A stretch of DNA of 64,000 nucleotides from positions 1 to 64,000 of the IMG/VR virus record IMGVR_UViG_3300022871_000009. One strand, written 5' to 3'. Source of the DNA: a virus. Taxonomy: Duplodnaviria; Heunggongvirae; Uroviricota; Caudoviricetes. Of the stretch, positions 7,441 through 63,402 are shown in pieces (the stretch's first letter is position 1; the number at the start of each line of letters is the position of its first letter). Both the position numbers and the translations under genes were made by a program. The notes beneath the pieces were generated by a model that was given only the letters and a program-made list of their open reading frames with translations, was not told where the DNA came from and did no database searches.

Positions 7441-7782
7441 TTAATCCTTTTTGTCAAGTTCTTCTTTCTCCTCCTTAGGAGCGGAGCGAAAAGCTTGGTT
7501 GATTTTGTTGTTAGGATTTTTGTATTCGTTCATCACCATTGACTTCAGGCTCCACAAATTTGTAATTAGAGCTCTTGGGTCAACTTTCAACTTGCCTTGC
7601 CAGAATTCATTGACTGATTTAGACAACTCATCTGTTGGCTCAAAATTGAAATATCCAACTGGATTACGCTTCTCCCCTTCTATCTGGTAGTCTACTCTGA
7701 CAATATCAAATTTAAGAGTCACGAGTGTTGTTGCTAGGTAAATGTCCCTAGTAGAAAAAGTAGTCTTTTCCTTATTTTCCAT
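7441..7782 (-). CDS. hypothetical protein
   Basis: 113-aa ORF preceded by a promoter-like motif. Confidence 0.45.
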   Translation of the reverse strand: MENKEKTTFSTRDIYLATTLVTLKFDIVRVDYQIEGEKRNPVGYFNFEPTDELSKSVNEFWQGKLKVDPRALITNLWSLKSMVMNEYKNPNNKINQAFRSAPKEEKEELDKKD

Positions 7783-7815
7783 ATGATTTTATATTATTTT
7801 TTATATTCCGACCCT

Positions 7816-7844
7816 ATTATAGCATAAGTCCCTATTTACTATCA
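7816..7844 (-). promoter_or_regulatory. promoter with conserved extended -10 element AGGACTTATGCTATAAT
   Basis: Reverse complement TGATAG-17-TATAAT. A 16-nt block identical to the sites at 8632, 41388 and 55114. Confidence 0.45.
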
Positions 7845-7983
7845 GATACAAGCAAGACACGAAATAGCAGATGTAGAAGCACCCTGGACGAAAAGGATTT
7901 TGTGTCTTGCTATCATTCGCTTAAAAAAGCGACGCTGTTTGCACCTTTTCTATCTCATCGTATCTTCCTTGTAGCTGGTAGTT

Positions 7984-7999
7984 GTAAAGTACATTCACC
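7984..7999. repeat. 16-bp direct repeat TGTAAAGTACATTCAC, copy 1
   Basis: Exact second copy at 8403..8418. The two copies flank the small gene 8135..8359. Confidence 0.5.
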
Positions 8000-8134
8000 C
8001 AATCTCTATTAACTATGACCATGAAGTCCCAATATAAATTAGGCAATTACAGTCAATAGAGTTAGATGTAATTATACACACCAATTAACAAAATTGGATG
8101 AATATACTCTTAAAGCTCAGGGTCAAAGAATTAA

Positions 8135-8359
8135 TTATTCCTCTAGTGTTCCATCTGGATAAACATCTTCACTGCACACACAATGCCTCCAGAAAGCGTT
8201 AATACAATGACCAAAATCGTCTCTTGCCATATCTTTGACTGCTTTCTCTTGTCTCTCGTTGAGACCTATACCCTCTATTATGGTTAATATTTTTCCCTCT
8301 AAAAACTTGACTTGACCAGATGATTGGTCATAACTTAATAGTTTAGTTTTAACTTTCAT
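8135..8359 (-). CDS. hypothetical protein
   Basis: 74-aa ORF. Confidence 0.4.
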   Translation of the reverse strand: MKVKTKLLSYDQSSGQVKFLEGKILTIIEGIGLNERQEKAVKDMARDDFGHCINAFWRHCVCSEDVYPDGTLEE

Positions 8360-8402
8360 ACTTTACTTGACTTAACTTGACCCTGAATTGTAAAAGAACT
8401 AC

Positions 8403-8418
8403 TGTAAAGTACATTCAC
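8403..8418. repeat. 16-bp direct repeat TGTAAAGTACATTCAC, copy 2
   Basis: Exact match to 7984..7999. Confidence 0.5.
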
Positions 8419-8510
8419 AGACCGCACAATATACAGATAGCAGTCAGCACACCTAGGATACCCCAGGTCCACAGTACTACTCCTAAATTGCCGTCATATC
8501 TCTCTCTCAT
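8415..8510 (-). CDS. possible 31-aa hydrophobic micro-protein
   Basis: Manual translation MRERYDGNLGVVLWTWGILGVLTAICILCGL. About 120 nt downstream of the minus-strand promoter at 8632. No SD sequence. Confidence 0.2.
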   Translation of the reverse strand: MRERYDGNLGVVLWTWGILGVLTAICILCGL

Positions 8511-8631
8511 AATAAATATTATACTGTACCCCTAAAAAGGGGAGTGTAGGTCAACAACTAGTCATAACCGGCTCAGCCTATCTTCCTTTCGTTTTGTCGG
8601 ATACAGACAAATATCTACTATCTTTGACTAC

Positions 8632-8661
8632 ATTATAGCATAAGTCCTACCTAATTGTCAA
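8632..8661 (-). promoter_or_regulatory. promoter TTGACA-18-TATAAT carrying the AGGACTTATGCTATAAT element
   Basis: Reverse complement TTGACAattaggtAGGACTTATGCTATAAT. Divergent from the plus-strand promoter at 8692. Confidence 0.5.
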
Positions 8662-8691
8662 CCTGTTTTTAGACCCTGTGGATAGTAACAC

Positions 8692-8720
8692 TTGACAAGT
8701 TTTCAGTGCTATGGTATAAT
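8692..8720 (+). promoter_or_regulatory. consensus sigma70 promoter (TTGACA-17-TGGTATAAT)
   Basis: CACTTGACAAGTtttcagtgctaTGGTATAAT. Perfect hexamers, extended -10 TG, 17-nt spacer. Confidence 0.6.
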
Positions 8721-9250: not shown

Positions 9251-10099
9251 ATGTTTGAACGAAAAAGACCATTGATTAGTATCATACTTCCATGTTGGTT
9301 TACAAAAGAGCAACATGGAAAGTATGGTAAACACGAGACATTCTGGTTTGCTACCAAATGTCTAGAAAGACTCATCGCTGTGACTCCGAAAGACTCCTAC
9401 GAAATAATCATGATTGATAACGGGAGTACTCTTTCAGATGAAGACATTGAGCACGAGGTACAACAACTTATGCTAGGAGCTCCACCTGTGGTTTTCCCGG
9501 CTTATTCTCCCTCAGACTATTGGGCAAAAGCAGATATCCTAATTCGCAATCAACAGAATCTAGGATTTGCACCTGCCTGTAATCAGGGGTTCGCTATCGC
9601 ACGCGGTGAGTACATTTGTTGCCTCAATGACGATATATTAGTTTGGGAAAACTGGGAGACGGCTCTAATCGAGGCATTAGCACTCGAAGTAGAACCTGCA
9701 CCTGGTATTGTTATGCCAGCGCTAATGCGCGAAACGCGTGTAGCCACGGAAGCAATTGAAACCAAAGAAATCGACTTGAAAACTAACGCAAACAAGTTCG
9801 GCCCAGGGGCTGAGTTTGGCTCTCTCTGGTTCTGTAAAAAAGAGCTGTTAGACGAGTTAGTTGTAAAAGACGGCTATGTATTCGATGAGAACTTTAAACT
9901 CGGTATGGGGGAAGATAGAGACCTCTGGGACAGAGTTAGAGTTCTAGGTTACGAGACATATAGAACCCACAACACAAGAGTATTCCACCAAGGCAACATG
10001 ACTATCGGAAAAGTTTCTGATAGAAAAGAATACACCACAAAAAACAGGGAGTACTTAGAGACAAAAAGGAAGGCCCGCGGACAGAGGGAAGAAATTTAA
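9251..10099 (+). CDS. family 2 glycosyltransferase (GT-A fold)
   Basis: N-terminal ISIILPCW...IIMIDNGS pattern plus a DxD-like CLNDD. Confidence 0.7.
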   Translation: MFERKRPLISIILPCWFTKEQHGKYGKHETFWFATKCLERLIAVTPKDSYEIIMIDNGSTLSDEDIEHEVQQLMLGAPPVVFPAYSPSDYWAKADILIRNQQNLGFAPACNQGFAIARGEYICCLNDDILVWENWETALIEALALEVEPAPGIVMPALMRETRVATEAIETKEIDLKTNANKFGPGAEFGSLWFCKKELLDELVVKDGYVFDENFKLGMGEDRDLWDRVRVLGYETYRTHNTRVFHQGNMTIGKVSDRKEYTTKNREYLETKRKARGQREEI

Positions 10100-10332: not shown

Positions 10333-12035
10333 TAATATCCAAAAAGCCGACAACTAAATTCAAATACGAATTTGACTTTGACTTTTCTTACGATGTTCTC
10401 ACTATCTGCCGAGCTATCAAAATGAGACACGGCGCTGCCAACATGAATTTCAATGGAGGTAAATGGCGCTTTAATAATCTCGCTATCTTAGACGAACTTA
10501 AAAAAGTTTTTCCATCAATCAAAATTGATGTGTCTATGCATAATGATATGAAGCAATATAGTAGAGACAAAGAAGAGAAGCAAGACAAGATTGAAAGAGC
10601 TCATGAAATTAAAAAAGCTGTTGCTTCTGATTTGGATATTACTGGAATTAAAGGAGAACTCTACCCATATCAAAAACTAGGCGTAGAGTTCTTCATTAAT
10701 AACGGCGGACGTGGTATATTAGCTGATACAATGGGGCTTGGAAAGACTTTACAGACTCTGGCTTATATAGTGCATGCAAAGAAAAAGAAGACTATCGTAA
10801 TTTGCCCAGCGAGTGTTAAATATTCTTGGGAAAGCGAGGTCAAAAAATGGACGAAACTAAAATCAAAAGTTTTGAACAGTAAAGATTTTAGTGAGTTTAA
10901 TACTGAGGTATTTTCAGGGCATGATGTCTTTATCATAAATTACGATTTGATAAGAAAGTTTCTACCGAAACTACTTGCACTGAGGTGGGACTGCATGGTT
11001 TGTGATGAATTTCATTACATTAAAAACTCTGCGGCTCTCAGAACTAAAGCTACTAAGAAACTGGGCGGTCAGATTGAATCAATCTTACTTCTCAGTGGTA
11101 CTCCAATACTGAACAGACCAGTAGAATTGTTTAATGGATTGAACGTGTTAGAACCTACGGTGTGGAATGATTATTATCAGTACACATCAAGGTACTGTGG
11201 AGCTTATCAGGGACACTTTGGCTGGGATGCCCGTGGGGCTACTCACATAGATGAGTTGCAACAAAAAACTTCTCACTATTTCCTAAGAAGAAATAAAGAT
11301 GAAGTTTTGAGTGAGCTTCCTCCAAAAAGATTCATGGATAATCCTGTAGAGTTGGAAGCTGAAGTTCAGTCTAAATATAGATTGGCAGAAACAGCTTTCA
11401 TAAAATATTTACGAGAAGTAAAAAAGAAAAAAATATCAGAAAGTTCTGCTAACGAGCAGGCATACAAATTAGCTAGACTAAATGAACTGCGCCAATTGGC
11501 TTCAGAAGGAAAGGTCTACGCGGCCAAAGAAATCATAGAGAATGTAATTGATAATGGAGAAAAGATATTGGTTTTCTCAGCTTTCAACAAACCACTAGAG
11601 GACCTCAAAGAATACTTCGGAGATTCTGCTATAATTCTCACCGGCAAAACAAGTAGTGAAGACCGCAGAGATATCATAGAAAAATTTCAGAAAGATAAAA
11701 AAACTAAAATATTCTTAGGAGGAATCAAAAGCGCTGGTGTTGGAATAACATTAACTGCCGCTTCTAGTGTGTTGTTTGTTGACTACAGTTGGGTCCCTGC
11801 TGACCATGCTCAAGCTGTAGACAGGGCTCATAGGATTGGTCAAAAAGCTGACAGTATCTCTGTATACCAATTGTACTCAAAGGACACTATAGATGAGTAC
11901 ATGATGGAAACTATCAAACGTAAAGAGAAGATATTCAACCAACTTATTAACGGTGTTGGCAGCGAAGAAAAACAAACTAAACTGAGCATGGTCGGAGACG
12001 TAATAAAAAGTTTCGAACAGAAGTTATGCACTTGA
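10329..12035 (+). CDS. SNF2-family DNA-dependent ATPase/helicase
   Basis: Motif I ILADTMGLGKTLQ. Motif II DEFHYIKN. C-terminal helicase motifs (GGIKSAGVGITLT, VDRAHRIGQ). Confidence 0.85.
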   Translation: MIISKKPTTKFKYEFDFDFSYDVLTICRAIKMRHGAANMNFNGGKWRFNNLAILDELKKVFPSIKIDVSMHNDMKQYSRDKEEKQDKIERAHEIKKAVASDLDITGIKGELYPYQKLGVEFFINNGGRGILADTMGLGKTLQTLAYIVHAKKKKTIVICPASVKYSWESEVKKWTKLKSKVLNSKDFSEFNTEVFSGHDVFIINYDLIRKFLPKLLALRWDCMVCDEFHYIKNSAALRTKATKKLGGQIESILLLSGTPILNRPVELFNGLNVLEPTVWNDYYQYTSRYCGAYQGHFGWDARGATHIDELQQKTSHYFLRRNKDEVLSELPPKRFMDNPVELEAEVQSKYRLAETAFIKYLREVKKKKISESSANEQAYKLARLNELRQLASEGKVYAAKEIIENVIDNGEKILVFSAFNKPLEDLKEYFGDSAIILTGKTSSEDRRDIIEKFQKDKKTKIFLGGIKSAGVGITLTAASSVLFVDYSWVPADHAQAVDRAHRIGQKADSISVYQLYSKDTIDEYMMETIKRKEKIFNQLINGVGSEEKQTKLSMVGDVIKSFEQKLCT

Positions 12036-12060
12036 CAAGTTTAGAGTAATATGGTATAAT
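12032..12060 (+). promoter_or_regulatory. consensus sigma70 promoter (TTGACA-17-TGGTATAAT)
   Basis: CACTTGACAAGTttagagtaataTGGTATAAT, followed by AAAAGGTCGA as at 8737. Confidence 0.6.
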
Positions 12061-12116: not shown

Positions 12117-12737
12117 ATGTCAATATTTTCAGACGAAAATAAAGTATCTGGAAGCTGGGCTTCCTTTAAAGTAGTAGGAGACAAAGTAGAAGGTACACTT
12201 ATAGACAAGCGAACCACTTTCAATAAATTGAGTGGAAAAGACCAAATAATCTACGAGTTGAAAGACTCAGAGGATAATATAATCCTCGTTGGTGGTAAAC
12301 CTGCCGTAGATGCACAAATGAAACACGTTAGGTTAGGTCAGATTGTAGGATTTGAGTTCACAGAAGAACGTAAAGCTACAGTACCTGGTCATAGCCCTAC
12401 CAAGATTATCCAAATATTCGCCAACGTTAAAGTTGTAGACGAAGAATGGTTAGCAGTTCAAGAAGCTGCAAAAGAACTTGGTGGAACTGTCACTCAATCT
12501 CCTGCAGATGGTTCAGAGGAACCAAGTTACGAACCTGTAGAAGATAAAGTTGAAGAACCTGAAGTACCTGATTTTTCAGAAGGTGCCTCACAAGCAGAAG
12601 AAATTAATACTCTCGCAAAAGCTAAATTAGGTGCCGAAACTGATGCTGACGTACAAGCAAAAGTAATGGAGAGCACTAAACTTGCCTTTATCGAAGATAA
12701 TTATACTGCGATTCTAGAAGCTCTTAAAAAATTGTAA
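12117..12737 (+). CDS. hypothetical acidic protein, probably a highly expressed early protein
   Basis: 206 aa. The C-terminal half is very acidic (EEPSYEPVEDKVEEPEVPDFSEGASQAEE). Directly downstream of a consensus promoter. Confidence 0.5.
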   Translation: MSIFSDENKVSGSWASFKVVGDKVEGTLIDKRTTFNKLSGKDQIIYELKDSEDNIILVGGKPAVDAQMKHVRLGQIVGFEFTEERKATVPGHSPTKIIQIFANVKVVDEEWLAVQEAAKELGGTVTQSPADGSEEPSYEPVEDKVEEPEVPDFSEGASQAEEINTLAKAKLGAETDADVQAKVMESTKLAFIEDNYTAILEALKKL

Positions 12738-12738
12738 A

Positions 12739-12768
12739 CCCAAACTCAAACGACTTGTCGTTTGGGTA
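12739..12768 (+). terminator. stem-loop after the 12117..12737 gene
   Basis: CCCAAACtcAAACGACttGTCGTTTGGG inverted repeat. No clear U-tract. Confidence 0.35.
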
Positions 12769-13206
12769 GTGTCGCCCTGCCTAAGGTGGTTCCCCCTCCT
12801 TTCTGCCTGGGTAATCAGGCGATACTACTTAAACTATAATTTACTGAGTGTTGGGTTGGCTGAATAAACTCTTCGATAGGGAGTTAAAGCACAGCGAAAG
12901 TGGCATAGGAGTCATCATTAGCTGATTAGCAAGACAATTACAATTATGTAAAATGTACTATCGCGAAGAGCCTGTAAATAAACTGAATCAGGCCAGTTTC
13001 TACAAAAACACATTTTTGCTTCCTCCTAGGTTGGGTGAAGGTGTGAGGGACTGTTGGGCAAGTTCTGACTGCGTTGTCGGAAGCCCAGGTGAGCAGGGTA
13101 GGCCCTGTGTAGCCTAAATAAATAAAAGCTGAATAACGACTTGCTATGCAGGAAACCATAATCCTGTACCAAGCACTTAGTAAATTATATCTAGAAATAT
13201 TAAAGT

Positions 13207-13713
13207 ATGCCTACCGGTATCTACAAACGTAAATCATGTACATCCACAACAAAAATTAAAATAGGGAACGCCAACATAGGAAAAAAGAATGGTGTATATA
13301 AGCATGGCATGGTAAAAACAAAATTTTATAGGCATTGGAGAATAATGAAAAGTAGATGTTCTGATAAAAATAGACCGTCCTATTACAATAAGGTATCTGT
13401 TTGCAAAGAATGGACCGATTTTCTAAAATTTAAAGAAGATACACATAAATCATATATTAACCATGTAAAAATGTTTGGAGAGGCTAACACAACTCTAGAC
13501 AGAATTGATGGAAACGAAAACTATCACAAAGACAACTGTAGGTGGGCAACAAAAGAGTTGCAGGCTAATAACAGAAAAAATACGTTATTCTTTAAATTAG
13601 ATGATAAAAAATATACTATAAGAGATTTATCTAAATTAACTGGAATAACTTATAAAAATTTATTTAACAGATTGGTCGTTCACAAATGGCTAATTAGTAA
13701 AGCAATTAAATAA
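13207..13713 (+). CDS. free-standing HNH homing endonuclease (HNH_3/NUMOD-like)
   Basis: TLDRIDGNENYHKDNCRWATKELQANN matches the HNH_3 signature. Basic N-terminal region. Confidence 0.65.
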   Translation: MPTGIYKRKSCTSTTKIKIGNANIGKKNGVYKHGMVKTKFYRHWRIMKSRCSDKNRPSYYNKVSVCKEWTDFLKFKEDTHKSYINHVKMFGEANTTLDRIDGNENYHKDNCRWATKELQANNRKNTLFFKLDDKKYTIRDLSKLTGITYKNLFNRLVVHKWLISKAIK

Positions 13714-17760: not shown

Positions 17761-18591
17761 ATGAAAATATTAATCTTTGGTGCAGGATGGATAGGCAAAC
17801 TCTGTAAAGAATACTGGGGCGATGAAGCCATACTTATAGATGAGTTTATCAAAAGTCCAGGACAAGCTGGGCACTTTATAGAAAAACATAAACCAGACGC
17901 AGTGCTTAACGCTGCAGGTATAGTAGGTAAACCTAATGTAGATTGGTGTGAAGACCATCAATTCGAAACATTTGAAGGCAACACTCAGTTACCGTTATTG
18001 ATTGCAAACGCTTGCCGCAAATATGGTGTCTATATGTTACATATTGGCACTGGTTGTATCTATTACGGATACAAAGATGGAGGCTGGCTTCCAGAAGACT
18101 ATGCTAACCCTGTCGCTGTATACACTCGTACAAAATACGCCGCTGACTTAGTTCTAGCAACTCTACCTAACGTAGGTATAGCTCGTATCAGAATGCCAAT
18201 CCACTCTGTTCCTAGTCGAGCAAACTTGATTGACAAATTAGCTTCGTATCCAAAAGTTGTAGATGTAGAAAATAGCGCTACAGTTGTAGAAGACATGCAA
18301 ATGGCATTCTATAAATTGATGGAACAGAAGGTTGAGGGTATCTTCCATGTAGTGAACCCAGGTTCTATCACACACAAGGAAATCCTCAAGCTATATGAAG
18401 AACATGTAGATGAAAATCATACTAACGAATGGATTACTGCACAAGAGCTTACAGACTTAGGTCTAGCTTCAAAAACTAGGTCTAACAATGTTCTAAATAC
18501 AGAAAGTTTAGAAGAGCTCGGTATTGAAATGCGACCTATAAGAGTTGCTGTTGCAGACGCCATGGAAAAATATAGCAAACTTAAAAAATAA
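17761..18591 (+). CDS. NAD(P)-dependent sugar-nucleotide reductase/epimerase (RmlD-like)
   Basis: Rossmann MKILIFGAGWIGK. YxxxK (YTRTKYAAD). Adjacent to rmlB/rmlA. Confidence 0.55.
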   Translation: MKILIFGAGWIGKLCKEYWGDEAILIDEFIKSPGQAGHFIEKHKPDAVLNAAGIVGKPNVDWCEDHQFETFEGNTQLPLLIANACRKYGVYMLHIGTGCIYYGYKDGGWLPEDYANPVAVYTRTKYAADLVLATLPNVGIARIRMPIHSVPSRANLIDKLASYPKVVDVENSATVVEDMQMAFYKLMEQKVEGIFHVVNPGSITHKEILKLYEEHVDENHTNEWITAQELTDLGLASKTRSNNVLNTESLEELGIEMRPIRVAVADAMEKYSKLKK

Positions 18592-18596
18592 CAGCT

Positions 18597-19556
18597 ATGA
18601 AACTATTAGTAACTGGAGGGGCAGGCTTTATAGGGTCAAACTTTATCCATTACTGGATGGAGCGACACCCAGCCGATGAAATATTAAATGTAGATAAACT
18701 AACTTACGCTGGTAATTTAGACAATCTCAAAGGTGTAGACAAATTAGATAATTACACTTTTGTACAAATGGACATCTGTGACCCAAAAATGGAAAATTCA
18801 ATAAAATGGTGTGACATAGTAGTGCACTTCGCTGCTGAAACACACGTTGATAATTCCTTAGAGTCAGCAGATGCATTCATCAAAACCAACGTGAATGGAA
18901 CTTACAACATTCTAAAATACGTACAAAAATACGATAAAAGAATGCACCATATTTCTACGGATGAAGTGTTTGGCTCGCTGCCTCTGGGAACTGATGAGAA
19001 ATTTAGCGAAAATACTCCATACTCTCCTAGAAATCCTTACTCAGTTACAAAAGCTGCCGCTGATTACATGGTTAGATGTTTCCATGATACGTATGGAACA
19101 AAGATAACCATCAGCAACTGCTCTAACAACTACGGACCACGTCAGCATATAGAGAAAATGATTCCTAAAGCTATCACCAACATCTTACAAGGAAAGACAG
19201 TCCCAGTATATGGTACAGGAGAAAACGTAAGAGATTGGTTGCATGTTACAGAACATTGCCGTGCTGTAGAAGCAATAATTTACAGAGGTAGAATAGGAGA
19301 GACTTATTGTGTTGGTGGTATGGATGAGGGTATAAGCAATTTGCAGTTGGTAGAAACAATGGCTGATATGCTACAACTCGATTCAAAGGATTGTATAAAA
19401 TTTGTAAAAGACAGGGCGGGACATGACCTGAAATATGCTGTTAACTGGAATAAAATTAACGGAGAACTGGGCTGGTCCCCAACATTAGACTTTGAAACTA
19501 ATTTAGCAGACACTATTCAGTGGTATAGAGAAAACCGTTGGTGGTGGAATGAATAA
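18597..19556 (+). CDS. rmlB: dTDP-glucose 4,6-dehydratase
   Basis: MKLLVTGGAGFIGSNF...DKLTYAGNL...YSVTKAAAD. Typical RfbB sequence and length. Confidence 0.85.
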   Translation: MKLLVTGGAGFIGSNFIHYWMERHPADEILNVDKLTYAGNLDNLKGVDKLDNYTFVQMDICDPKMENSIKWCDIVVHFAAETHVDNSLESADAFIKTNVNGTYNILKYVQKYDKRMHHISTDEVFGSLPLGTDEKFSENTPYSPRNPYSVTKAAADYMVRCFHDTYGTKITISNCSNNYGPRQHIEKMIPKAITNILQGKTVPVYGTGENVRDWLHVTEHCRAVEAIIYRGRIGETYCVGGMDEGISNLQLVETMADMLQLDSKDCIKFVKDRAGHDLKYAVNWNKINGELGWSPTLDFETNLADTIQWYRENRWWWNE

Positions 19557-50400: not shown

Positions 50401-52412
50401 GGATTAAAGTAAAATGATAATGAATCTAATATAGTTGTACTAAATCCTGCGTGTTTATACGCATATCGTGTTACTGCATCACTAGAATAAAAATTATTTT
50501 TATTAGTTGTTAGTGCTGTTGTATAATTAGCAGGGGGTTTAAGATAATCTTTAAGTGTTGATGAAAAACCAGAATGTTTATATATTTTGTCAGACACATT
50601 ATCAGTACTATATAAATTATAATAATCTAATGTAACATCTTTTAAATTTATGCTAGGAGATGAAAAACTATTTAAAACTGTGGATGAAAAACCAGAATAA
50701 TGATATATTCTTCCACGGTCAGGTGCACAAAAAAGTGCACCGTTTATTGCTAAACCTCTCACAACACGAGTATTAGAACCAGAGAAACTATCCAGTACAG
50801 TTGTACTAAATCCAGAATGTTTGTAAATTTGGTGACTAATTCCAGTTTCTCTAGAATATAAATAATTTAAATCTTTAGTAACTCCGTTAGATGATGATTC
50901 TACAGTAGGAGGAATTATAGATTCAATAACTGTAGTAGAAAAACCACTAAACTTATAAATTAATTTATCAGAACACGCAGCAATCAAATTATCTAGAAAT
51001 AATGATGTACTTGAACTAGTGGAGCTAGACGTTGACGAACTTGTTGAACTTGTAGAAGAACTAGTAGAACTCGTAGAACTAGATGTACTAGAACTTGTTG
51101 AAGAACTAGAAGTAGATAAGCTAGTCGAACTAGAAGTGGATGAACTAGTCGAACTAGAAGTGGATGAACTAGTAGAACTAGAAGTTGAGGAACTAGTAGA
51201 ACTCGATGTTGAGGAACTAGTAGAACTTGATGTAGAACTTGATGTACTAGAAGAAGTCGAACTAGAAGTAGACGAGCTAGTAGAACTAGTAGAGCTTGAT
51301 GTTGAGGAGCTAGTAGAACTTGAAGTGCTAGAAGATGTACTAGAACTAGTAGAGCTAGAAGTTGAAGACGACGTACTCGATGTTGAAGAACTAGTAGAAC
51401 TAGATGTTGAAGAGCTAGTAGAACTTGATGTTGAAGAGCTAGTAGAACTTGATGTTGAAGAGCTAGTAGAACTTGATGTAGAAGATGATGTACTTGAAGA
51501 AGTCGAACTAGAAGTAGAAGAACTAGTTGACGATGTACTGGAAGAAGTCGAACTAGAAGTAGATGAGCTAGTTGACGATGTACTCGAAGAAGTCGAACTA
51601 GATGTACTAGAGCTAGTAGAACTAGTAGAAGAACTAGTAGATGATGAAGTAGAAGATGTGGTATATCTAGCTGCAGCATCCTGCCATGAGGCTGCTGTAG
51701 AATAGGTTGATGAGTCAAAACTATCTAAAATTGTGGATGAAAATCCTGCATGTTTATAAACATCTCCAGGTGTAAAGTCAGAACTAAAAATATTAGTTCC
51801 ATCACCAGACATATCACCAATGTTGTCACCTGGTGAAGAGAAACTATCGGTAATTGTAGTAGAGAATCCAGAATGTTTAAATAATGAATCAGGAGTATTA
51901 CCATCTGCGCTATAAAAAATTCCAGATACATATGTAAAGCCCTCTGGTCTAGTAGAAGGGCCAGTAAAACTATCTAACACCGTAGAACTGAATCCATCAT
52001 GTTTATATATTTTACTAAGAGACACATCTGTACTATAAGTATTAGTCCCATCATCTGTGACAGCATACGTTTCTGTGCCTGGAGCTGAAAAGCTGTCGCT
52101 AATTGTAGTAGAAAATCCTGAATGTTTATAGACTCTTTCCGAATTCGCATCTGCAGACAAAACACCAGTAGTTGAATATTCAACTCCAAAAGGAAAAGTA
52201 CTTGGAGTAGAAAAACTATCTATTATTGTAGAACTGAATCCAGAATACTTATAAATTTGTTGGAGTGAGTATTCAGAAGTAATTGTATTATTACTATCTC
52301 CAGCAGCTTTAGACACCTCTTCATTATCAACAAAAAGATTACCTTTAATTGCTTCAAGGTAATCTTCGTCTGATAACTCGTCTGAATTTTTATGGTCGAG
52401 GTGGTCCGTCAT
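41418..52412 (-). CDS. giant 3664-aa modular fibre protein
   Basis: About 50 copies of a 38-42-aa repeat around (I/V)YKHSGFSSTILDSF...P.G(L/V)T.DG.N.YS.D. They fall into blocks of 5,5,5,10,10,5,5,5. Each block is capped by a (L/I)TW(D/E).Y..R motif and followed by an (SSST)n tract of about 30 to over 300 residues. One continuous ORF. Confidence 0.7.
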   Translation of the reverse strand: MTDHLDHKNSDELSDEDYLEAIKGNLFVDNEEVSKAAGDSNNTITSEYSLQQIYKYSGFSSTIIDSFSTPSTFPFGVEYSTTGVLSADANSERVYKHSGFSTTISDSFSAPGTETYAVTDDGTNTYSTDVSLSKIYKHDGFSSTVLDSFTGPSTRPEGFTYVSGIFYSADGNTPDSLFKHSGFSTTITDSFSSPGDNIGDMSGDGTNIFSSDFTPGDVYKHAGFSSTILDSFDSSTYSTAASWQDAAARYTTSSTSSSTSSSTSSTSSSTSSSTSSSTSSTSSSTSSSTSSSTSSTSSSTSSSTSSSTSSSTSSSTSSSTSSSTSSSTSSSTSSSTSSSTSSSTSSTSSSTSSSTSSSTSSSTSSSTSSSTSSSTSSTSSSTSSSTSSSTSSSTSSSTSSSTSSSTSSSTSSSTSSSTSSSTSSSTSSSTSLSTSSSSTSSSTSSSTSSTSSSTSSTSSSTSSSTSSSTSLFLDNLIAACSDKLIYKFSGFSTTVIESIIPPTVESSSNGVTKDLNYLYSRETGISHQIYKHSGFSTTVLDSFSGSNTRVVRGLAINGALFCAPDRGRIYHYSGFSSTVLNSFSSPSINLKDVTLDYYNLYSTDNVSDKIYKHSGFSSTLKDYLKPPANYTTALTTNKNNFYSSDAVTRYAYKHAGFSTTILDSLSFYFNPSIYGFTWDNYNKRVSFYSTTTTSSTSSSTSSSTSSSTSSTSSSTSSTSSSTSSSTSSSTSSSTSSSTSSSTSLLDDLISIGLNTGDVHNVYKYSGFSSTVKDSFAAALYTTGVTKDKTYLYTAGDFVSTNDAVYKHSGFSTTILDSFSSPSGYLGGVTINDTALFSSDYVSDKIYQHLGFSSTIADSFSSPSSAPNGLTSNKYRLFSTDTASDKIYQHSGFTSTIQSSFASPSSMPRGLAYDGKYIYSTNALPWVSESRLDYKHSGFSSTILDSFIPSDYDFDITWGHYSSRVGTTTTTSTSSSTSSSTSSSTSSSTSSTSSSTSSSTSSSTSSSTSSSTSSTSSSTSSSTSSSTSSSTSSSTTSSTSSSTSSSTSSSTSSSTSSSTSSSTTILFDNFLSADSISGKLYRHVGFSSTISDSFSSPSPVPEGVTWDGVNAYSSDSDMDMLVTKMYKHSGFSSVILDSFSSPSIAPRGLTHDTVNIYSVDYTAGKLYQHSGFSTTISDSFNSPSNAPTGITQDGDDTYSSDYFTETVYKHSGFTSTILGSFTNLANFPSVGITLKEGDIYASGPPGKMYKHSGFTSTIVSSFSTPSTTPTGIEYESIGKRLGIENLMMTNDDTDKIYKFSGFSSTVLDSFGSPSTSPSGLSYDGFDIYSANYSTRDIYHHSGFSSTILDSFGMPKSVWGVVYGDERIYSSDYWDKIYRHSGFSSTILDSFTQFLPADITMDGANIYAQNLPDAAIFKYSGFSSTVVDSFEGATGVGITWDGKNLYNTKDYGVNKHRGFSSTIIDTIDTSAIGTDSRGITWEDYWSRTAETTSSTSSSTSSSTSSSTSSSTSSSTSSTSSSTSSSTSSSTSSSTSSSTSSSTSSSTSSSTSSTSSSTSSSTSSSTSSTSSSTSTSSTSSSTSSTSSSTSSSTSSSTSSTSSSTSSSTSSSTSSTSSSTSSSTSSTSSSTSSSTSSSTSSSTSSSTSSSTSSTSSSTSSSTSSSTTIIFDELIEIDDNAISSKVYKYSGFSSTVVDSFSTPSTAPRGVTWDSKYILSGDLAGYIYQHSGFTSTILDSFASPSADPRGLTVQKDTLYSTDGVSDQIYKHSGYSSTISDSFSSPNLNPYDLTYDATDLYSTDTGIDKVYKHSGFTSTILESFAAVGSRTGLTYTGQHFITAEQSPDEFYKHSGFTSTVLDSFTGVANQGSGIDYMDYGGRLETNNYIGIGYYWNTEVFKYSGFSSTITDSFSSPSSYGFGVTSDGEDSYTSDVGLNRIFKHSGFSSTVSDSFSSPSIKPWGLTWGDDRIYSGDIDSDVLYRHSGFSSTILNSFSTPSSGSLDITLDGKNIYSADDATEKVYKHSGFSSTVLNSMAAVTPDIAGLTFDGYHIYTTDGNSAYSYKHAGFSTTIMDSFDGTPEYLLGVEWDNIWSREISTTSSTSSSTSSSTSSSTSSSTSSSTSSSTSSSTSSSTSSSTSSSTSSSTSSSTSSTSSSTSSSTSSSTSSSTSSSTSSSTSSSTSSSTSSSTSSSTSSSTSSSTSSTSSSTSSSTSSSTSSSTSSSTSSSTSSSTSSTSSSTSSSTSSSTSSSTSSSTSSSTSSSTSSTSSSTSSSTSSSTSSSTSSSTSSSTSSSTSSSTSSSTSSSTSSSTSSSTSSSTSSSTSSSTSSSTSSSTSSSTSSTSSSTSSSTSSTSSSTSSSTSSSTSSTSSSTSSSTSSSTSSTSSSTSTSSTSSSTSSTSSSTSSSTSSSTSSTSSSTSSSTSSSTSSTSSSTSSSTSSSTSSSTSSSTSSSTSSTSSSTSSSTSSSTSSSTSSSTSSSTSSTSSSTSSSTSSSTSSTSSSTSSSTSSSTSILYDDNLIAISPSIIYKYSGFSSTILESLGGVSAIGSLGVAFNKDLYSTNYNTNLIYHFSGFSSTLLDNFAAAASETYGLEADRDRMYSTDLTTEKIYIHSGFSSTISDSFAAEAINPRDIAVNKYRLFSLIDGSDRMYRHSGFTSTISDSFAAPGTRPGGFTTDSIDFYSTIFNPRSASYRKAYKHSGFSSTILDVFRTATNNFGLAWENYVKRLAITTTSSTSSSTSSSTSSTSSSTSSSTSSTSSSTSSSTSSSTSSSTSSSTSSSTSSTSSSTSSSTTLLNDDFYSVHVYGDLFFRYSGFSSTILDSFTVPSANIPAGLSWKDKLMYSGDAGLNIIYKHSGFSTTMIDSFSSPSTRYVKLTMTEPGDLYSVDKNTAKIYKHSGFTSTILDSFGTIIPYPSGLESNLYRLYSGGATLSVEYGIYRHSGFTSTISDSFATVRSSVARDANDTYGSSVSDFVKYNRFTSTILDSFAQPTGNLGGIAWGGDARFETTSSTSSSTSSSTSSTSSSTSSSTSSSTSTTTTLYENLMGVQYSDDKIYKYSGFSSTVIDSFSSPSTSPYGLTFLGDVYSGDSSSDVIYRHSGFTSTILSSFSSPSDSPQGVTIDYTNFYSIDNGTDKIYVHNGFSSTVSDSFSSPSSSPKGFTVNVARLFSIDGGSDKVYRHSGYTSTIADTFNTPSTLPGGLTLDKNDFYSTNYSIFIPVGCNVYQHSGFSSTVKDSFIPDGNVGDLTWGNYKRRLAETTTSSTSSSTSSSTSSSTSSSTSSTSSSTSSTSSSTSSSTSSSTSSSTSSSTSSSTSSSTSSSTSSSTSSSTSSSTSSSTSSSTSSSTSSSTSSSTSSSTSSSTSSSTSSSTSSSTSSSTSSSTSSSTSSSTSSSTSSSTSSSTSSSTSSSTSSSTSSTSSSTSSSTSSSTSSTSSSTSSSTSSSTSSTSSSTSSSTSSSTSSTSSSTSLSTSSSTSSSTSSTSSSTSSSTSSSTSSSTSSSTSSSTSSSTSSSTSSSTSSSTSSSTSSSTSSSTSSSTSSSTSSSTSSSTSSSTSSSTSSSTSSSTSSSTSSSTSSSTSSSTSSTSSSTSSSTSSSTSSSTSSSTSSSTSSTSSSTSSSTSSSTSSSTSSSTSSSTSTISFYIEDMEITGGLETLGRRGGISTQGVFGGGYYGF
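41521..42660. repeat. (AGT/AGA/ACT)n low-complexity DNA encoding the C-terminal (SSST)n tract (approximate bounds)
   Basis: Imperfect triplet repeats. Produces a spurious antisense E/L/V-rich ORF at 41536..42687. Confidence 0.7.
44890..46150. repeat. (SSST)n-encoding triplet-repeat tract (approximate)
   Basis: Same repeat class. Spurious antisense ORF 44962..46245. Confidence 0.7.
47425..47950. repeat. (SSST)n-encoding triplet-repeat tract (approximate)
   Basis: Same repeat class. Spurious ORFs 47284..47970 (+) and 47405..48004 (-). Confidence 0.7.
50990..51660. repeat. (SSST)n-encoding triplet-repeat tract (approximate)
   Basis: Same repeat class. Spurious ORFs 51019..51705 and 50993..51718. 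Shorter tracts lie near 43320-43430, 44070-44260, 49225-49510 and 50190-50340. Confidence 0.7.
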
Positions 52413-53802
52413 AACTTGGACGCTGTGACGTTACCTTCAGTAGAAGGTCGTTCACGCTTTTAATGTCCAAGGTTTTCATATGTTTACAAAGTAAACCGAA
52501 ATGAGTATATAGTTTGTATCCCAATTTCTGGGCTTGTTGTGAAAATACAAAATCTTCTGAATATTCGACAGTTCCGTTAGAATGGTAGGTAAAGTAAAAT
52601 GGTCTATCCATCTTCTCTAAAACCTCTCTCTTAATCATAAACATTCCACCTGTGACTACATCAGTCTCTTCGACTCCAGAACCGTAATACGGCCTGTATT
52701 TGCCCTCTGAGTCGTATCTGTGAGCCACTGGTATAGGTGCCATAAGCCCATCATCATCAACTTTCGTCGTTAGACAGGTTGGGGCCACTACGTCCTTATC
52801 AGCTTTGATAAGTTCTCTCAGTGTCTCTAAAGGAGGAATAATATCATTATCAATCATCACAAGATAATCAAAATAATCTTCTAGAAAGCTTTTTACAATA
52901 AAGTTCCGGGCATTATCCAATGGAAACATGTGTGACGCAGGGAATATCTTAACGACAAACTCTGGGTCGTGTGTCCATTGAATCAGCCTCATGGCCAGTT
53001 CAATATGTAATTTACCATCTGCTGTAGGTAGGCCTATGAAAATCCTAGGCTTTTCGCCTAGCTCATCTTTCCACTTAGCACGGTGTTTATTATATTGGCC
53101 AACAGCATACTTCTTAGAGTAGTCGACATCGTGGTCGAACAATTCTCTAAAAGCAGCTGAACCATAATGATACATGAACGAGCTTCGCACGGCTCCAATT
53201 TTGTAACCAAGCTTTTTCACTCTAAGACATATATCATTGTCATCGCCACCACCAGTACCAAATCTCTCGTCTAAGATGTGTCCTTCTCCCAAACCGAATT
53301 CTTTATTATGAGAAACCAGTTTATCAACTACTTCTCTTGTCATTGGGACACACACACCTTTTACCTCAGGAGCCTCTTCTATGCCGCCGAGATGAGAGTA
53401 TTCAATACTTTGTTTACTATCGGCCTCGCCTATTAGCGGTGCCAATATACCGTACTCTGGATTTTTCTTAAACGCTTCAACGATTTTCTCTATCCAACCT
53501 GGAACGCAGACAACGTCTGAATTCAAAAGAACTACATATTCACTATCGGGGGATACTTTAGCAAAACCTGCATTTATGGCACCGGTGTAACCCTTAGCTT
53601 CTTCATGATAGACTGACGCTGCAAAGGTATACTTTGATAACATCTCTTTCATCTCATCATCTTTTCCGTCTTGGACAATGATGAGCTCTAAGTTTGGGGT
53701 GTAACCGAATACGCTTTCAATCGCTACTCTGGTCAAATCAGGTCTAAACCTGACTGGCATTATTATTGAAACCCTCGGAAATGAATTTAAAATTTCCTTC
53801 AT
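52390..53802 (-). CDS. tandem two-domain glycosyltransferase (two GT-A/GT2-like halves)
   Basis: N-terminal half SIIMPVRFRPDLTRVAIESV...IIVQDG (GT2). Second half IFIGLPTADGKLH...VMIDNDIIPP. Immediately upstream of the giant fibre gene, with overlapping stop and start. Confidence 0.6.
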   Translation of the reverse strand: MKEILNSFPRVSIIMPVRFRPDLTRVAIESVFGYTPNLELIIVQDGKDDEMKEMLSKYTFAASVYHEEAKGYTGAINAGFAKVSPDSEYVVLLNSDVVCVPGWIEKIVEAFKKNPEYGILAPLIGEADSKQSIEYSHLGGIEEAPEVKGVCVPMTREVVDKLVSHNKEFGLGEGHILDERFGTGGGDDNDICLRVKKLGYKIGAVRSSFMYHYGSAAFRELFDHDVDYSKKYAVGQYNKHRAKWKDELGEKPRIFIGLPTADGKLHIELAMRLIQWTHDPEFVVKIFPASHMFPLDNARNFIVKSFLEDYFDYLVMIDNDIIPPLETLRELIKADKDVVAPTCLTTKVDDDGLMAPIPVAHRYDSEGKYRPYYGSGVEETDVVTGGMFMIKREVLEKMDRPFYFTYHSNGTVEYSEDFVFSQQAQKLGYKLYTHFGLLCKHMKTLDIKSVNDLLLKVTSQRPSYDGPPRP

Positions 53803-54274
53803 ATGCTTTTATTTCATTTATTTCATATAGGACATCATCATAGATATGTGAATTAACAATGATGTCTTGATTATACTCGCCAATCTGCCGAAGAGGCTGA
53901 ATTCGTGATTGGTGAGCCACATACCAAAAACCCATATCCCTTAATATCGGATATGTGCTTGCGGTAATTTGAAACCCAGGTGCTCTAAACCCGAATTTGT
54001 TAGGTAGGAGTGACGATAGTCTGCCATAAGATTCTTTTATTAATTCTTCGCGATTATCTCGCTCACATTCAGGTGGGTCGTCGTGCAACCAACCATGAAT
54101 TCCTACCTCTACCCAGTCTTTATTTTTAACTAGCCAGTTCTCAATCAATGAGTCCACTTCTCCAGCTATAGGAAAGACTGTAACTTTAAAATCTGGACGA
54201 ACTATTTTAAACTCCTCCAGTTTGTACAAATTACTAATGTATCTCTTTGATATATCATCAACAGTGAAATACAT
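53744..54274 (-). CDS. hypothetical protein (possible carbohydrate deacetylase-like)
   Basis: 176-aa ORF. Weak by-eye resemblance only (GIHGWLHDD). Confidence 0.3.
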   Translation of the reverse strand: MYFTVDDISKRYISNLYKLEEFKIVRPDFKVTVFPIAGEVDSLIENWLVKNKDWVEVGIHGWLHDDPPECERDNREELIKESYGRLSSLLPNKFGFRAPGFQITASTYPILRDMGFWYVAHQSRIQPLRQIGEYNQDIIVNSHIYDDVLYEINEIKAYEGNFKFISEGFNNNASQV

Positions 54275-54280
54275 AACTAG

Positions 54281-54730
54281 TTAGGCTTGTTTTGCTTGTC
54301 TTTTTACTTTAGCTTCAGAAATTCTGTCTGAGAATCTCTTGTTGTAACTGACACCCTTTACATCTTTAGATGGGTCAATAGCGTCAAGTTCATCAGTTGT
54401 GAATTCAAGACCTAGTTGACTTTTTATAGTCAAACGTTTAATCTTTGCTTCGTCAGTGATTTGTTCTGATAACTCTTCGTTATCATTTGAAAACGCGATA
54501 GCTTCTATTTCTGACATATCAGAAACTCTATCTTTGTCGCCAAGTATAGTTTTCCAATCGACACCGTCTCTTATTTCTAGTAACAAATCTGTTGATTTGA
54601 TACCTTCTGCAGATTCTTCTTCTGCATACAAGTGGTCTGTAATAAAAGGTTCTAGGCTACTATATCCAGAAGGATATTTCATGCCGCCTTCACCATGGGG
54701 TAGGCTTATCTTGATGTAGTTCATACACAA
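54281..54730 (-). CDS. hypothetical protein
   Basis: 149-aa ORF. Confidence 0.4.
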   Translation of the reverse strand: MCMNYIKISLPHGEGGMKYPSGYSSLEPFITDHLYAEEESAEGIKSTDLLLEIRDGVDWKTILGDKDRVSDMSEIEAIAFSNDNEELSEQITDEAKIKRLTIKSQLGLEFTTDELDAIDPSKDVKGVSYNKRFSDRISEAKVKRQAKQA

Positions 54731-61349: not shown

Positions 61350-61976
61350 TTATAATATTTTATCTTTTTTTCTGTAATTATCTAACGCTTCTAAAGGTCT
61401 CAAATTATCTAGAGACCAACAGGACTCAAACTCATCATCATCTACTGAGGAATAATTAAATTTAGAGTCAGGAATTATGTGGTCAATATTCCACTCCCCC
61501 CTATTAAATCCATAATTATCCCAAGACATCCATGATTCAAATTTTGATTCTAAATTTTTAATAAGGTCATCTATGGTATAAGGCAGAATATCAAAAGTAG
61601 GCACCCCTTTTTTAGACAATAATCTTTTTTTAAGTCTATTTCTAACCAACCAAGATACCGTATATCTAAGCTTAAAATGTGGATTATTCTTATTTCTATG
61701 ATAATATCTTCTCCTACTCTCTTTTATTCCTCCCTTGTAATTCATCTTGTCCCTACAAACTAATGAACAATAATTATGTTTATTCTCTCTCAACTTAGAT
61801 GGTATACGTAACAATTCTTCGCCGCAGGAATCACATTGAACCTTTTGCACTTTAACCTGTGCTCTATGCTTGCATTTCCTTGAACAATATTTTCTTTTTT
61901 TTAATAATGACCTTTGAACATAAAAACTTTTTCCACAAAAAATACAGACCTTATTTGCTCCAGCACGATTATTCAT
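61350..61976 (-). CDS. free-standing HNH-like endonuclease with zinc fingers
   Basis: CIFCGKSF...CSRKC...CDSCGEE...CSLVC zinc knuckles. NIDHIIPDSKF HNH-like core. Confidence 0.5.
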   Translation of the reverse strand: MNNRAGANKVCIFCGKSFYVQRSLLKKRKYCSRKCKHRAQVKVQKVQCDSCGEELLRIPSKLRENKHNYCSLVCRDKMNYKGGIKESRRRYYHRNKNNPHFKLRYTVSWLVRNRLKKRLLSKKGVPTFDILPYTIDDLIKNLESKFESWMSWDNYGFNRGEWNIDHIIPDSKFNYSSVDDDEFESCWSLDNLRPLEALDNYRKKDKIL

Positions 61977-63402
61977 AGAGCACAGGTGCTAACATTTTAT
62001 GATATATAGCATCGAAACTGTGGGTGCTCCAAACCTTTCTGAATTGTTTGTCAGGTTTATTTGATTCTAACTGTCCGATAATAATCTTAGCCAATCTATC
62101 GAAGGCCTGAGGGTCTCGCTCTGCGTAGTGCATGCTCTTCAAAGAAGTGAAAGGGTGCTTGAGCACAGCATTAGTATCTACGAAATCAAACAAACAAGGT
62201 AAATCTTCGTTAATAACTAGTAAGTTTTTAGCCATAGAAGCTTCCAGCAATACATTGCTACACACCTCCGCTATGGTAGGGAATACAAACAAGTTAGATA
62301 TTTGCATTAATTGTGCTACGACTTTATTTGGAACCTCAGTAAGAGTATCGTAGCCGTCATCACTGAGCAAGCTAGTAAACACAAAATCAGTCTCATCAAG
62401 ACCGTGCACTTCTCTAGCAAATTTTAATTTATCTTCAATTTCGTCTACTCTTCGTCTGCCGTTTGAATTGCAGACAATTAGAGCGACATTCTTGCCCTGT
62501 CTCTTAAGAGCTCCGAATGTAGCTATTACAGAATTTAGACCTTTGGCATCCATTCTTGTGGTACAGATAGGATATGTCTGGATGACATCTTTCTCCCACA
62601 ATCTCATCTTGTCGCTGACCATCCTAGTCGTAGGATGCCAATCAAACATTAGTGATGGGTCTTTCTCGTTAAAAATCACACGCACATCGCTATCTCTTAC
62701 TCCGATGTTTCTAGCAAAACCACCAACATCTGCATAGTTCATATAGACATACTTTGTGTTGTCCATTCTGAAATCAATCGGTCTGCCCACTCCAGAACGG
62801 GCCCAGTGTAGCCATTTAATAGGAACTCCACATTCTCTTATAGCTTCTCGGTATGTTATACAATCGTCTATATAAAAATCATGAGTTATAGCGATATCGA
62901 AATCATTTGTAAGCGCACTCCTGAGCATATCAATCATCCTAGTCTTTGCATCCTCATCAACTATACCCTTCTCACGCTTGAATTTAGGTACCACAGGGCG
63001 CATTTCACACCCAATGTCTAATGTACTGCCTTCTTGTGTAAAAAAAACAACCTCGTGCCCATAATGCTGTAACATCTTGATTTGATTCTTTACAGCACGC
63101 CCAGGAGAATAGCTATCAGGGCATCTGTTAAAATGCGTAATTATAGCTATCTTCAGAGGTTTCTCATTTTCAAGAGCCTCAGGCGCTTTAGTTATTGGCA
63201 CAGGTTGTTCTGGTTTTATTCCAAGTGACCTGACAGCATGGTCTAGTGAAGGGATTATATCGTCTCTAGGGAATTCTTCTTGTACTGCATAGTGAGCCAA
63301 GTTATTCTCCTCTTTACTAGGGTCTTTGATTGTAGCAGTTATAAAATAACTGCCAGAGTTCTTTGCTGCCTGGATTATACTGTCTATGTTGCTATTATTC
63401 AT
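61969..63402 (-). CDS. hypothetical protein, possible glycosyltransferase (GT-B-like)
   Basis: 477-aa ORF at the end of the GT island. No firm motif. Confidence 0.3.
   Translation of the reverse strand: MNNSNIDSIIQAAKNSGSYFITATIKDPSKEENNLAHYAVQEEFPRDDIIPSLDHAVRSLGIKPEQPVPITKAPEALENEKPLKIAIITHFNRCPDSYSPGRAVKNQIKMLQHYGHEVVFFTQEGSTLDIGCEMRPVVPKFKREKGIVDEDAKTRMIDMLRSALTNDFDIAITHDFYIDDCITYREAIRECGVPIKWLHWARSGVGRPIDFRMDNTKYVYMNYADVGGFARNIGVRDSDVRVIFNEKDPSLMFDWHPTTRMVSDKMRLWEKDVIQTYPICTTRMDAKGLNSVIATFGALKRQGKNVALIVCNSNGRRRVDEIEDKLKFAREVHGLDETDFVFTSLLSDDGYDTLTEVPNKVVAQLMQISNLFVFPTIAEVCSNVLLEASMAKNLLVINEDLPCLFDFVDTNAVLKHPFTSLKSMHYAERDPQAFDRLAKIIIGQLESNKPDKQFRKVWSTHSFDAIYHKMLAPVLYE

Follow-up and report, generated by a model that had tools for sequence, protein, structure and literature searches.

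The stretch analysed here (the window) comprises 64,000 nucleotides (nt) from a tailed phage of the Caudoviricetes, positions 1 to 64,000 of IMG/VR record IMGVR_UViG_3300022871_000009. Between an open reading frame (ORF) of 206 amino acids (aa; 12117-12737), for which no family match was found, and one of 168 aa (13207-13713) that encodes a free-standing HNH endonuclease, the window contains a non-coding gap of 469 nt (12738-13206). The gap falls into three parts: two hairpins (12744-12829), a 355-nt element (12835-13189) and a 17-nt spacer before the HNH start codon. An earlier, sequence-only reading of the window had drawn attention to a large non-coding gap at this place, with two GC-rich islands and local hairpins. 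The gap is real at the size given above, and both islands are borne out, with GC contents of 0.45-0.48 at ~12700-12850 and 0.49-0.52 at ~13000-13150, compared with 0.373 for the whole window; the hairpin offered as an example, GCCTGggtaatCAGGC, lies at 12805-12820. As detailed below, the gap very probably holds a structured RNA transcribed from the + strand. With moderate confidence, and relying on structural models, we identify it as a structured non-coding RNA (ncRNA) of ~355 nt (12835-13189) that would be an enlarged, divergent variant of the manA class.

The predicted folding energy of the gap is exceptional. Measured against shuffled copies, the whole gap yields z = -5.7 on the + strand and z = -2.6 on the - strand, and a 363-nt core yields z = -5.6 on the + strand. 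By comparison, 38 control windows from the same 64 kilobases (kb) give a mean z of -0.84 (standard deviation 1.6), with one further outlier.

Relatives of the locus were reached through the 206-aa protein. An IMG/VR protein-seeded search with this protein returned nothing, and blastn of the gap, and of a 2.8-kb neighbourhood around it, against 50,697 phage records produced no match; the SNF2 helicase of the window is at most ~33% identical to proteins of isolated phages, its best matches including Rhodothermus and Cellulophaga phages. Contigs with an identical 206-aa protein (24 read) share the gene arrangement, and the four contigs whose gaps were compared match the window at 100% identity wherever sequence is available. 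In contigs L009, L010 and L011 the orthologue is 64% identical, and L010 carries a homologous element after both hairpins (Table 1), followed by two small ORFs and then an SbcD-like gene; the HNH gene is absent. In L013 and L014 (orthologue 57% identical), the upstream gene is followed by hairpins 1 and 2 and then by SbcD, within 111 nt, and L013 lacks the 355-nt element as well as the HNH gene. The large gap is also missing from the more distant relatives L001, L138, L142 and L143. Because L010 has the RNA without the HNH gene and L013 has neither, gene order marks the RNA element and the nuclease gene as separate sporadic insertions in a variable intergenic hotspot. The syntenic hotspot of L002 (8140-8551) holds a different non-coding region of 410 nt, with two domains that each have a closing helix of ~20 base pairs (bp). 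A different ORF resembling HNH genes (7618-8139; Pfam HNH E = 9e-4) lies directly upstream of it. The region folds with z = -5.9 (+) and -5.7 (-), matches neither Rfam nor the model R2 described below, and may be another phage RNA.

The window and L010 elements are identical at 61.6% of aligned positions (215/349), compared with 67% in the adjacent coding sequence. Seven indels between the two copies (1, 1, 6, 4, 2, 3 and 2 nt) disrupt every reading frame, and the small ORFs of the gap (71 aa on the - strand, 54 aa on the + strand, 48 aa on the - strand) have no family matches, in agreement with the earlier judgement that the ORF noted here is non-coding. By contrast with the reading frames, the predicted fold is intact. 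An RNAalifold consensus of the two copies contains 78 pairs in 12 helices, and 78/78 are standard pairs in both sequences; 17 pairs are changed on both sides, 13 on one side (all compatible), and none is broken. When partners were slid by 1-3 columns as a control, 34-46% of cells paired and only 0-2 double changes arose. Zero disruptions at 38% divergence are hard to explain without structural selection. The covariation for which the sequence-only reading had advised looking is thus present, in a comparison of two sequences, and the structured ncRNA that it listed first among its candidates gains support from the covarying conserved fold, the folding energy and a specific, sub-threshold likeness to manA. 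Three further lines point to the + strand: G-U pairs in the closing helix, the direction in which all flanking genes run, and the strand matched by the covariance models.

Table 1. Features in and around the gap, and copies of a related RNA in transfer RNA (tRNA) arrays of other contigs. Positions refer to the window unless a contig is named.
Feature	Location	Strand	Remarks
Sigma-70-like promoter (putative)	12032-12060	+	TTGACA, 17 nt, TATAAT, with TG; 12/12 consensus positions
Hairpin 1	12744-12767	+	Immediately follows the stop codon of the 206-aa ORF; inverted repeat I4
Hairpin 2	12765-12829	+	Predicted fold; 11-bp base, C/U-rich top (CCCCCUCCUUU); includes GCCUGggtaatCAGGC
manA-like structured RNA element (candidate)	12835-13189	+	355 nt; homologous to L010 3027-3376
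Closing helix, 5' arm	12835-12856	+	Pairs with 13168-13189
P2 hairpin	12859-12890	+	Internal loop GC-UGAAUAA-(stem-loop)-UUAAA-GC; most manA-like feature
Expanded central domain	12891-13147	+	Several covarying helices (4-11); second GC-rich island (13020-13115) inside
P5-like hairpin	13148-13167	+	GCAGG-AAACCAUAAU-CCUGU; abuts 3' arm of closing helix
Closing helix, 3' arm	13168-13189	+	Pairs with 12835-12856
Free-standing HNH endonuclease gene	13207-13713	+	168 aa; PHROG phrog_3377 at 5.4e-32
tRNA-array RNA copy	L202 1436-1614		
tRNA-array RNA copy	L214 77-255		
tRNA-array RNA copy	L177 916-1094	-	
tRNA-array RNA copy	L182 871-1049		
tRNA-array RNA copy	L170 1975-2009		P2 match

The element is bounded by its closing helix (Table 1). 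The two arms form an inverted repeat (I1) of 22 nt with 86% Watson-Crick complementarity; with G-U pairs allowed, the helix has 20 pairs in the window and L010 alike, five of them compensatory. Within the element, 12922-12933 could instead pair with 13140-13151, in competition with P5. Palindromic loops, CCUAGG in the window and CUCGAG in L010, occupy homologous positions; a kissing-loop reading of these was not adopted, as a local mini-hairpin explains both equally well.

manA (RF01745) is an orphan candidate riboswitch of T4-like cyanophages, described as probably cis-regulatory and found in 5' untranslated regions (UTRs) (PMC2864571; Weinberg et al. 2010). According to a preprint of July 2026 (10.64898/2026.07.01.735769), the core of manA RNAs is conserved while their peripheral helices vary, and the RNAs self-assemble via kissing loops into closed 8-, 10- and 60-mers. 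On scanning the whole window against Rfam at gathering thresholds, we found no match; the gathering score of manA is 55.2 bits. In E-value mode, manA is the sole one of 4227 Rfam families to recur for the element and its homologue. The L010 copy aligns to the full manA model with 29.2 bits (E = 8.7e-6) and two large insertions, the cmscan alignment skipping 79 and 97 nt as local ends. Hence the Infernal/Rfam scan recommended in the sequence-only reading is empty at gathering thresholds, also as regards the group I intron envisaged there, and what it does deliver is the sub-threshold manA likeness.

The likeness can be followed module by module. The P2 hairpin reads GC-UGAAUAA-ACUCUU..GGGAGU-UAAA-GC in the window and AC-UGAAUAA-..-UAAG-GU in L010, against aC-UGAAUAAaCUU ... 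UAAg-Gu in the manA model, and both its stem and its outer pair covary between the two copies. The closing helix adjoining P2 is UGGGU/ACCAA in the window (one mismatch), where it continues outward to ~20 pairs, and UGGGA/UCCCA in L010, the cyanophage counterpart being GGGAG/CUCCC. At 13148-13167, a 5-bp stem with a loop of 10-12 nt that ends in AAU abuts the closing strand, as does P5. In the converse direction, model R2, an 83-position inner core built from the window and L010 only, was run on a 49-kb set and matches the P2 module in 7/8 genuine manA loci, on the correct strand. Two parts of manA are missing. The sequence 5' of the closing helix forms no local hairpin that could represent P1, which cmscan forced onto the 5' arm of that helix, and the conserved P3/P4 centre is absent, with a different covarying domain in its place. 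An nhmmer profile of manA accordingly detects no similarity to the P3/P4 region in the central domain (12891-13147). Because the element stays below the gathering score and lacks both the P1 hairpin and the P3/P4 centre, we file it as an enlarged variant and not as a member of manA. That the two are related we consider likely; the element is probably homologous to manA and, by analogy, is taken to work like it.

Several observations weigh against this assignment. The - strand of the core folds well, too (z = -4.8). The enlarged form is represented by two distinct sequences only, and since the consensus was derived from the same two, the covariation test is biased. The window copy by itself scores insignificantly on manA (15.9 bits, E = 0.25, and 14.6 bits, E = 0.16), and its alignment takes a different internal hairpin as P5. 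All manA-like scores, including those reported below for other contigs, fall short of the gathering score. A sequence-only nhmmer profile of six cyanophage manA RNAs finds neither the window nor L010. Model R1, consisting of the core and the long closing helix, found long hairpins and no manA RNA, and the R2 matches to manA are individually weak (9-14 bits) and confined to P2.

Further RNAs of this kind emerged when IMG/VR was searched with a pattern taken from the P2 hairpins of the window and L010. The pattern led to 38 near-identical contigs, four of which were tested and score 48-50 bits on manA (E ~1e-9), and also to L210 (44.1 bits on manA) and L162 (29.8 bits, ~300 nt). In the 38 loci (L170, L172-L177, L179, L181-L187, L189-L191, L193-L204, L206-L209 and L212-L215) the RNA measures 179 nt. 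It lies between tRNA-Ser(GCU) and tRNA-Tyr(GUA) in L202, L214, L177 and L170, and the L214 copy abuts tRNA-Tyr; a 16-mer, GGUUGGCUGAAUAAAC, is identical in the window element. The RNA of this tRNA-array group has no blastn match in the deposited-phage collection, and the Rfam threshold would miss the group. L210 and L218 share GGCUGAAUAAAC...GUUAAAGCACAG with the window and have closing helices of 7-12 bp; that of L210 has 12 positions (11 pairs), and its P5 loop ends in AUAAU. The RNA of L162 lies between a tRNA and a transfer-messenger RNA (tmRNA) on the same strand and, on reading the sequence, has a P5 hairpin as in the window, with a 3-nt spacer before the closing strand. The P5 arrangement is common to the window, L010, L210, the tRNA-array group and the cyanophage manA RNAs, all of which show the same module order in a positional check, and the P5 stems covary across groups, L162 included (GCAGG/CCUGU, GUCGG/CCGGC, GCGAG/CUCGC, GGUGG/CCACC, GUGGG/CCCAC, GUUGG/CCAAC and GUAAG/CUUAC). 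Compared with the window element, most of the IMG/VR manA-like RNAs are shorter (~160-200 nt) and have different centres, and they reside in tRNA/tmRNA arrays or beside terminase genes. Like the window element, L210, L218 and L162 have longer closing helices, and L162 is enlarged as well.

Some of these loci have features of their own. In L162 (3964-5124, - strand), the order is tRNA-Thr, a GroES-like ORF of 91 aa, a tRNA with an odd anticodon loop, the manA-like RNA and the tmRNA, which is full (94.5 bits) and encodes the tag peptide GETEFSSMTWEDAMSFVGAELELAA. L218 (100-315) contains a likely manA-like RNA of ~200 nt, closed by the helix UGUUGGU/ACCAGCA and with GCGGG/CCCGC as its P5 stem; just upstream is a promoter-like TTGACA, terminase-region genes lie downstream, and Rfam gives no match to this RNA at E <= 0.1. 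The IMG/VR pattern that led to L218 also returned L217, which was rejected as a chance match in coding sequence. Two cyanophage-like contigs, L019 and L097, carry genuine manA RNAs (959-1147 and 306-492, respectively, both on the - strand) and, ~1.2-1.6 kb away on the opposite strand, a hairpin UGGAAACCAUAAUCCA (L019 2316-2331 and L097 2065-2082, both +) in which GGAAACCAUAAUCC is identical to the window P5 core (inner stem and loop). This hairpin may be a chance occurrence or a second related module.

Other searches were less productive. Neither the exact 14-mer GGAAACCATAATCC nor the pattern TGTTGGGNTGNCTGAATAAAC of 19 bases yielded anything beyond chance matches. One metagenome scan with a combined P2 and P5 pattern recovered only an already known contig, the other nine loci having no convincing similarity. 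A scan of genome contigs gave seven bacterial or archaeal matches, none of manA type: six have no manA match, and the seventh, Methanosarcina L164, was checked with R2 only. A MAFFT alignment of the divergent manA-like groups was too poor to yield a third model.

Upstream of the 206-aa gene lies a putative promoter, a consensus match only (Table 1), from which a transcript could read into the gap. The sequence-only reading had placed a stem-loop terminator at hairpin 1, a claim that does not hold for the + strand: the sequence 3' of the hairpin there is GGGUAGUG, without a U-tract, and a terminator scan shows a terminator-like site on the - strand only. Hairpins equivalent to hairpin 1 are present in L010 and L013. 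Hairpin 2, the first of the two GC-rich islands, has counterparts with a CUCCUU tract at L010 2971-3026 and L013 3610-3665. As both hairpins occur in L013, which is without the large element, hairpins 1 and 2 appear from this comparison to be ancestral to the intergenic region, with hairpin 2 outside the manA-like element. Each of the three related phages thus has, behind the upstream gene, a long hairpin with a C/U-rich tract containing CUCCUU, with or without the large RNA, and this tract is similar to the 3'-terminal anti-Shine-Dalgarno sequence of 16S ribosomal RNA. CCCTCCTT did not emerge as a repeated signal, with one occurrence in the window against 1.4 expected by chance.

From these elements a mechanism can be proposed. 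The element would be co-transcribed with the upstream gene, as there is no canonical terminator between the promoter at 12032-12060 and the element. RNase III cleaves helices of the kind that closes the element, and cleavage within this helix of ~20 bp could release the element from the transcript. It would exist as a stand-alone folded RNA, not as a leader for the HNH gene, and could, by analogy with the canonical manA RNAs, assemble with itself into a particle. The HNH gene would be an independent insertion of a free-standing endonuclease into the same variable hotspot. The context of the relatives in tRNA/tmRNA arrays suits, by analogy, a stable, processed and trans-acting RNA and not a leader, and it hints at a link with translation or host takeover.

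Overall, we lean towards a stand-alone RNA over a cis-acting leader. The alternative, a regulatory leader as also listed in the sequence-only reading, or a riboswitch-like element, would sense a ligand or protein and so control translation or read-through of the downstream HNH gene or SbcD; it is less likely, and we regard it as improbable without dismissing it. It agrees with the published description of manA as a probable cis-regulatory riboswitch candidate in 5' UTRs (PMC2864571), and with the distance of the element from the next start codon, 17 nt in the window and 10 nt in L010. L218 has its promoter-like TTGACA upstream of the RNA and an ORF downstream, and the pairing that competes with P5 (12922-12933 with 13140-13151) could amount to a conformational switch. 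What a leader would regulate, however, differs between the copies, the next gene being the HNH gene in the window and an unrelated small ORF in L010, and the relatives inside tRNA/tmRNA arrays have no ORF to regulate. Neither a terminator/anti-terminator nor an element sequestering a Shine-Dalgarno motif was found in the element, and the phage scarcely uses such motifs, with Shine-Dalgarno-like sequences at 4/40 window genes.

A second alternative accepts a genuine structured RNA and denies its kinship with manA, the CUGAAUAA...UUAA hairpin being then an independently evolved recurrent motif. The central two thirds of the element, where manA similarity is lacking, speak for this, as do the empty nhmmer search and the insignificant manA score of the window copy; moreover, the syntenic gap of L002 holds a different and equally foldable region of 410 nt without manA features. 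The full-model alignment of L010 to manA (E = 8.7e-6) argues the other way. So do the three modules, which have the same order and abutting geometry as in manA, and the existence of intermediates, namely L210 (44 bits), the tRNA-array group (48-50 bits) and L162 (30 bits). We therefore rate independent origin as a minor alternative, rather less probable than a leader.

That the locus acts as DNA is very unlikely. On such an account, the terminal inverted repeats of 22 bp (12835-12856 and 13168-13189) would mark, for example, a mobile element of miniature type, a site of replication or packaging, or the recognition region of the HNH enzyme, consistent with the sporadic presence among relatives, the adjoining homing-type endonuclease gene and the good folding of the - strand. 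The repeat is, however, complementary in the Watson-Crick sense at 86% of positions, and its full pairing requires G-U pairs, on the + strand only. Helices throughout the interior covary, the RNA-family match is structure-aware, the window contains no second copy of the element, and no direct target-site duplication was seen on reading the flanks.

The sequence-only reading had also raised the possibility of a group I intron-like element, degenerate or active, tied to a downstream HNH_3 homing endonuclease; a different ribozyme in the same association was considered here as well. The HNH part of that description stands, with the PHROG match in Table 1 and four further HNH PHROG matches (phrog_374, 2081, 953 and 4578); the HNH_3 label does not, because neither Pfam HNH nor HNH_3 is detected in this ORF even at E <= 1. 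Even the nearest homologues of the HNH protein reach no more than 44% identity; they are scattered widely and lie in unrelated contexts. In L219-L221, three homologue contexts (~40-45% identical, among the nearest matches), coding genes crowd the gene on both sides, and neither a large structured gap nor a P2 motif accompanies it; a recurrent link between HNH genes and such an RNA was rejected on these grounds. Together with L010 and L013, the L219-L221 contexts led us to reject a functional RNA-HNH unit and with it the group I intron idea. All that speaks for the intron or ribozyme reading is that a structured region and an HNH gene are neighbours, and it is effectively refuted: Rfam intron and ribozyme models, Intron_gpI included, do not match the element even at E <= 10, the flanking ORFs are complete and unsplit, and the RNA exists without the HNH gene just as the HNH family exists without the RNA.

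Elsewhere in the window, two regions deserve mention. The sequence-only reading had called the gap the only large one, which is wrong, as 7783-8705 is a second long stretch without an ORF of more than 74 aa; located at the switch from leftward to rightward genes, it may be a divergent promoter or origin region. On the - strand, 53760-54300 is a second exceptionally folding region, with z = -6.1 for 53801-54163 and z = -4.6 for the whole; it lies in or around an ORF of 176 aa without family match and has no Rfam match. ARAGORN found no tRNA or tmRNA genes in the window. An N4-like phage was considered and dropped, as the 3664-aa ORF has no PHROG match, and the window phage is, by the genes examined, not a T4-like cyanomyovirus. 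It carries sugar-nucleotide and glycosyltransferase genes (17761-19556, 9251-10099, 52390-53802 and 61969-63402), among them a GDP-mannose 4,6-dehydratase, an RmlD-like reductase and a GT2 enzyme. These genes are of note because the manA and wcaG RNAs owe their names to genes for mannose and exopolysaccharides.

Since 2010, manA has counted as an orphan RNA, and the preprint now reports RNA-only cages. If our assignment is correct, the enlarged variant and its sub-threshold relatives in tRNA/tmRNA arrays would widen manA beyond the T4-like cyanophages and would argue against a simple riboswitch role. The enlarged variant would also provide a natural test of how peripheral helices set the geometry of assembly. 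For annotation, the gap would count as a gene and the adjacent HNH gene as an unrelated insertion. More speculatively, the manA class might be much broader than the Rfam family, a widespread phage ncRNA that accompanies tRNA/tmRNA genes in uncultivated phages. The additional peripheral helices of its enlarged forms would then build a different multimeric RNA-only cage, and these RNAs, instead of being riboswitches, would influence translation or defence of the host in trans; this we advance as a tentative idea that is more likely wrong than right.

Among known systems, group I introns with homing endonucleases resemble the locus in combining a structured RNA with a neighbouring HNH-type gene; the locus differs from them in that it has no intron core and no split host gene, the endonuclease lies outside the RNA, and the parts occur independently. 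ROOL and GOLLD are large, intricately folded ncRNAs of phages and prophages that form RNA-only assemblies and are often found near tRNA genes. The element is like them as a large folded phage RNA, with a different architecture, and the Rfam scan of the element gave no match to either. The comparison with manA goes furthest. At 355 nt the element is longer than manA (~190 nt), its closing helix measures ~20 bp instead of 5 bp, the 5' loop of P2 is 4 nt shorter than in the manA model, and an unrelated domain of ~250 nt stands in place of the manA centre (GGUGGUG, AACCA, ACUGUAG..AUGCCC); the window phage, unlike the hosts of manA, is not a T4-like cyanophage by the genes examined and has no DNA match to deposited phages. 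Both RNAs are encoded by phages, in intergenic positions and on the coding strand. They share the CUGAAUAA...UUAA P2 hairpin with its loop (G/A)C-UGAAUAA...UUAA(A/G)-G(C/U), the 3' (P5) hairpin and the closing helix, and in both the junction is closed by sequence just 5' of P2 pairing with sequence just 3' of P5.

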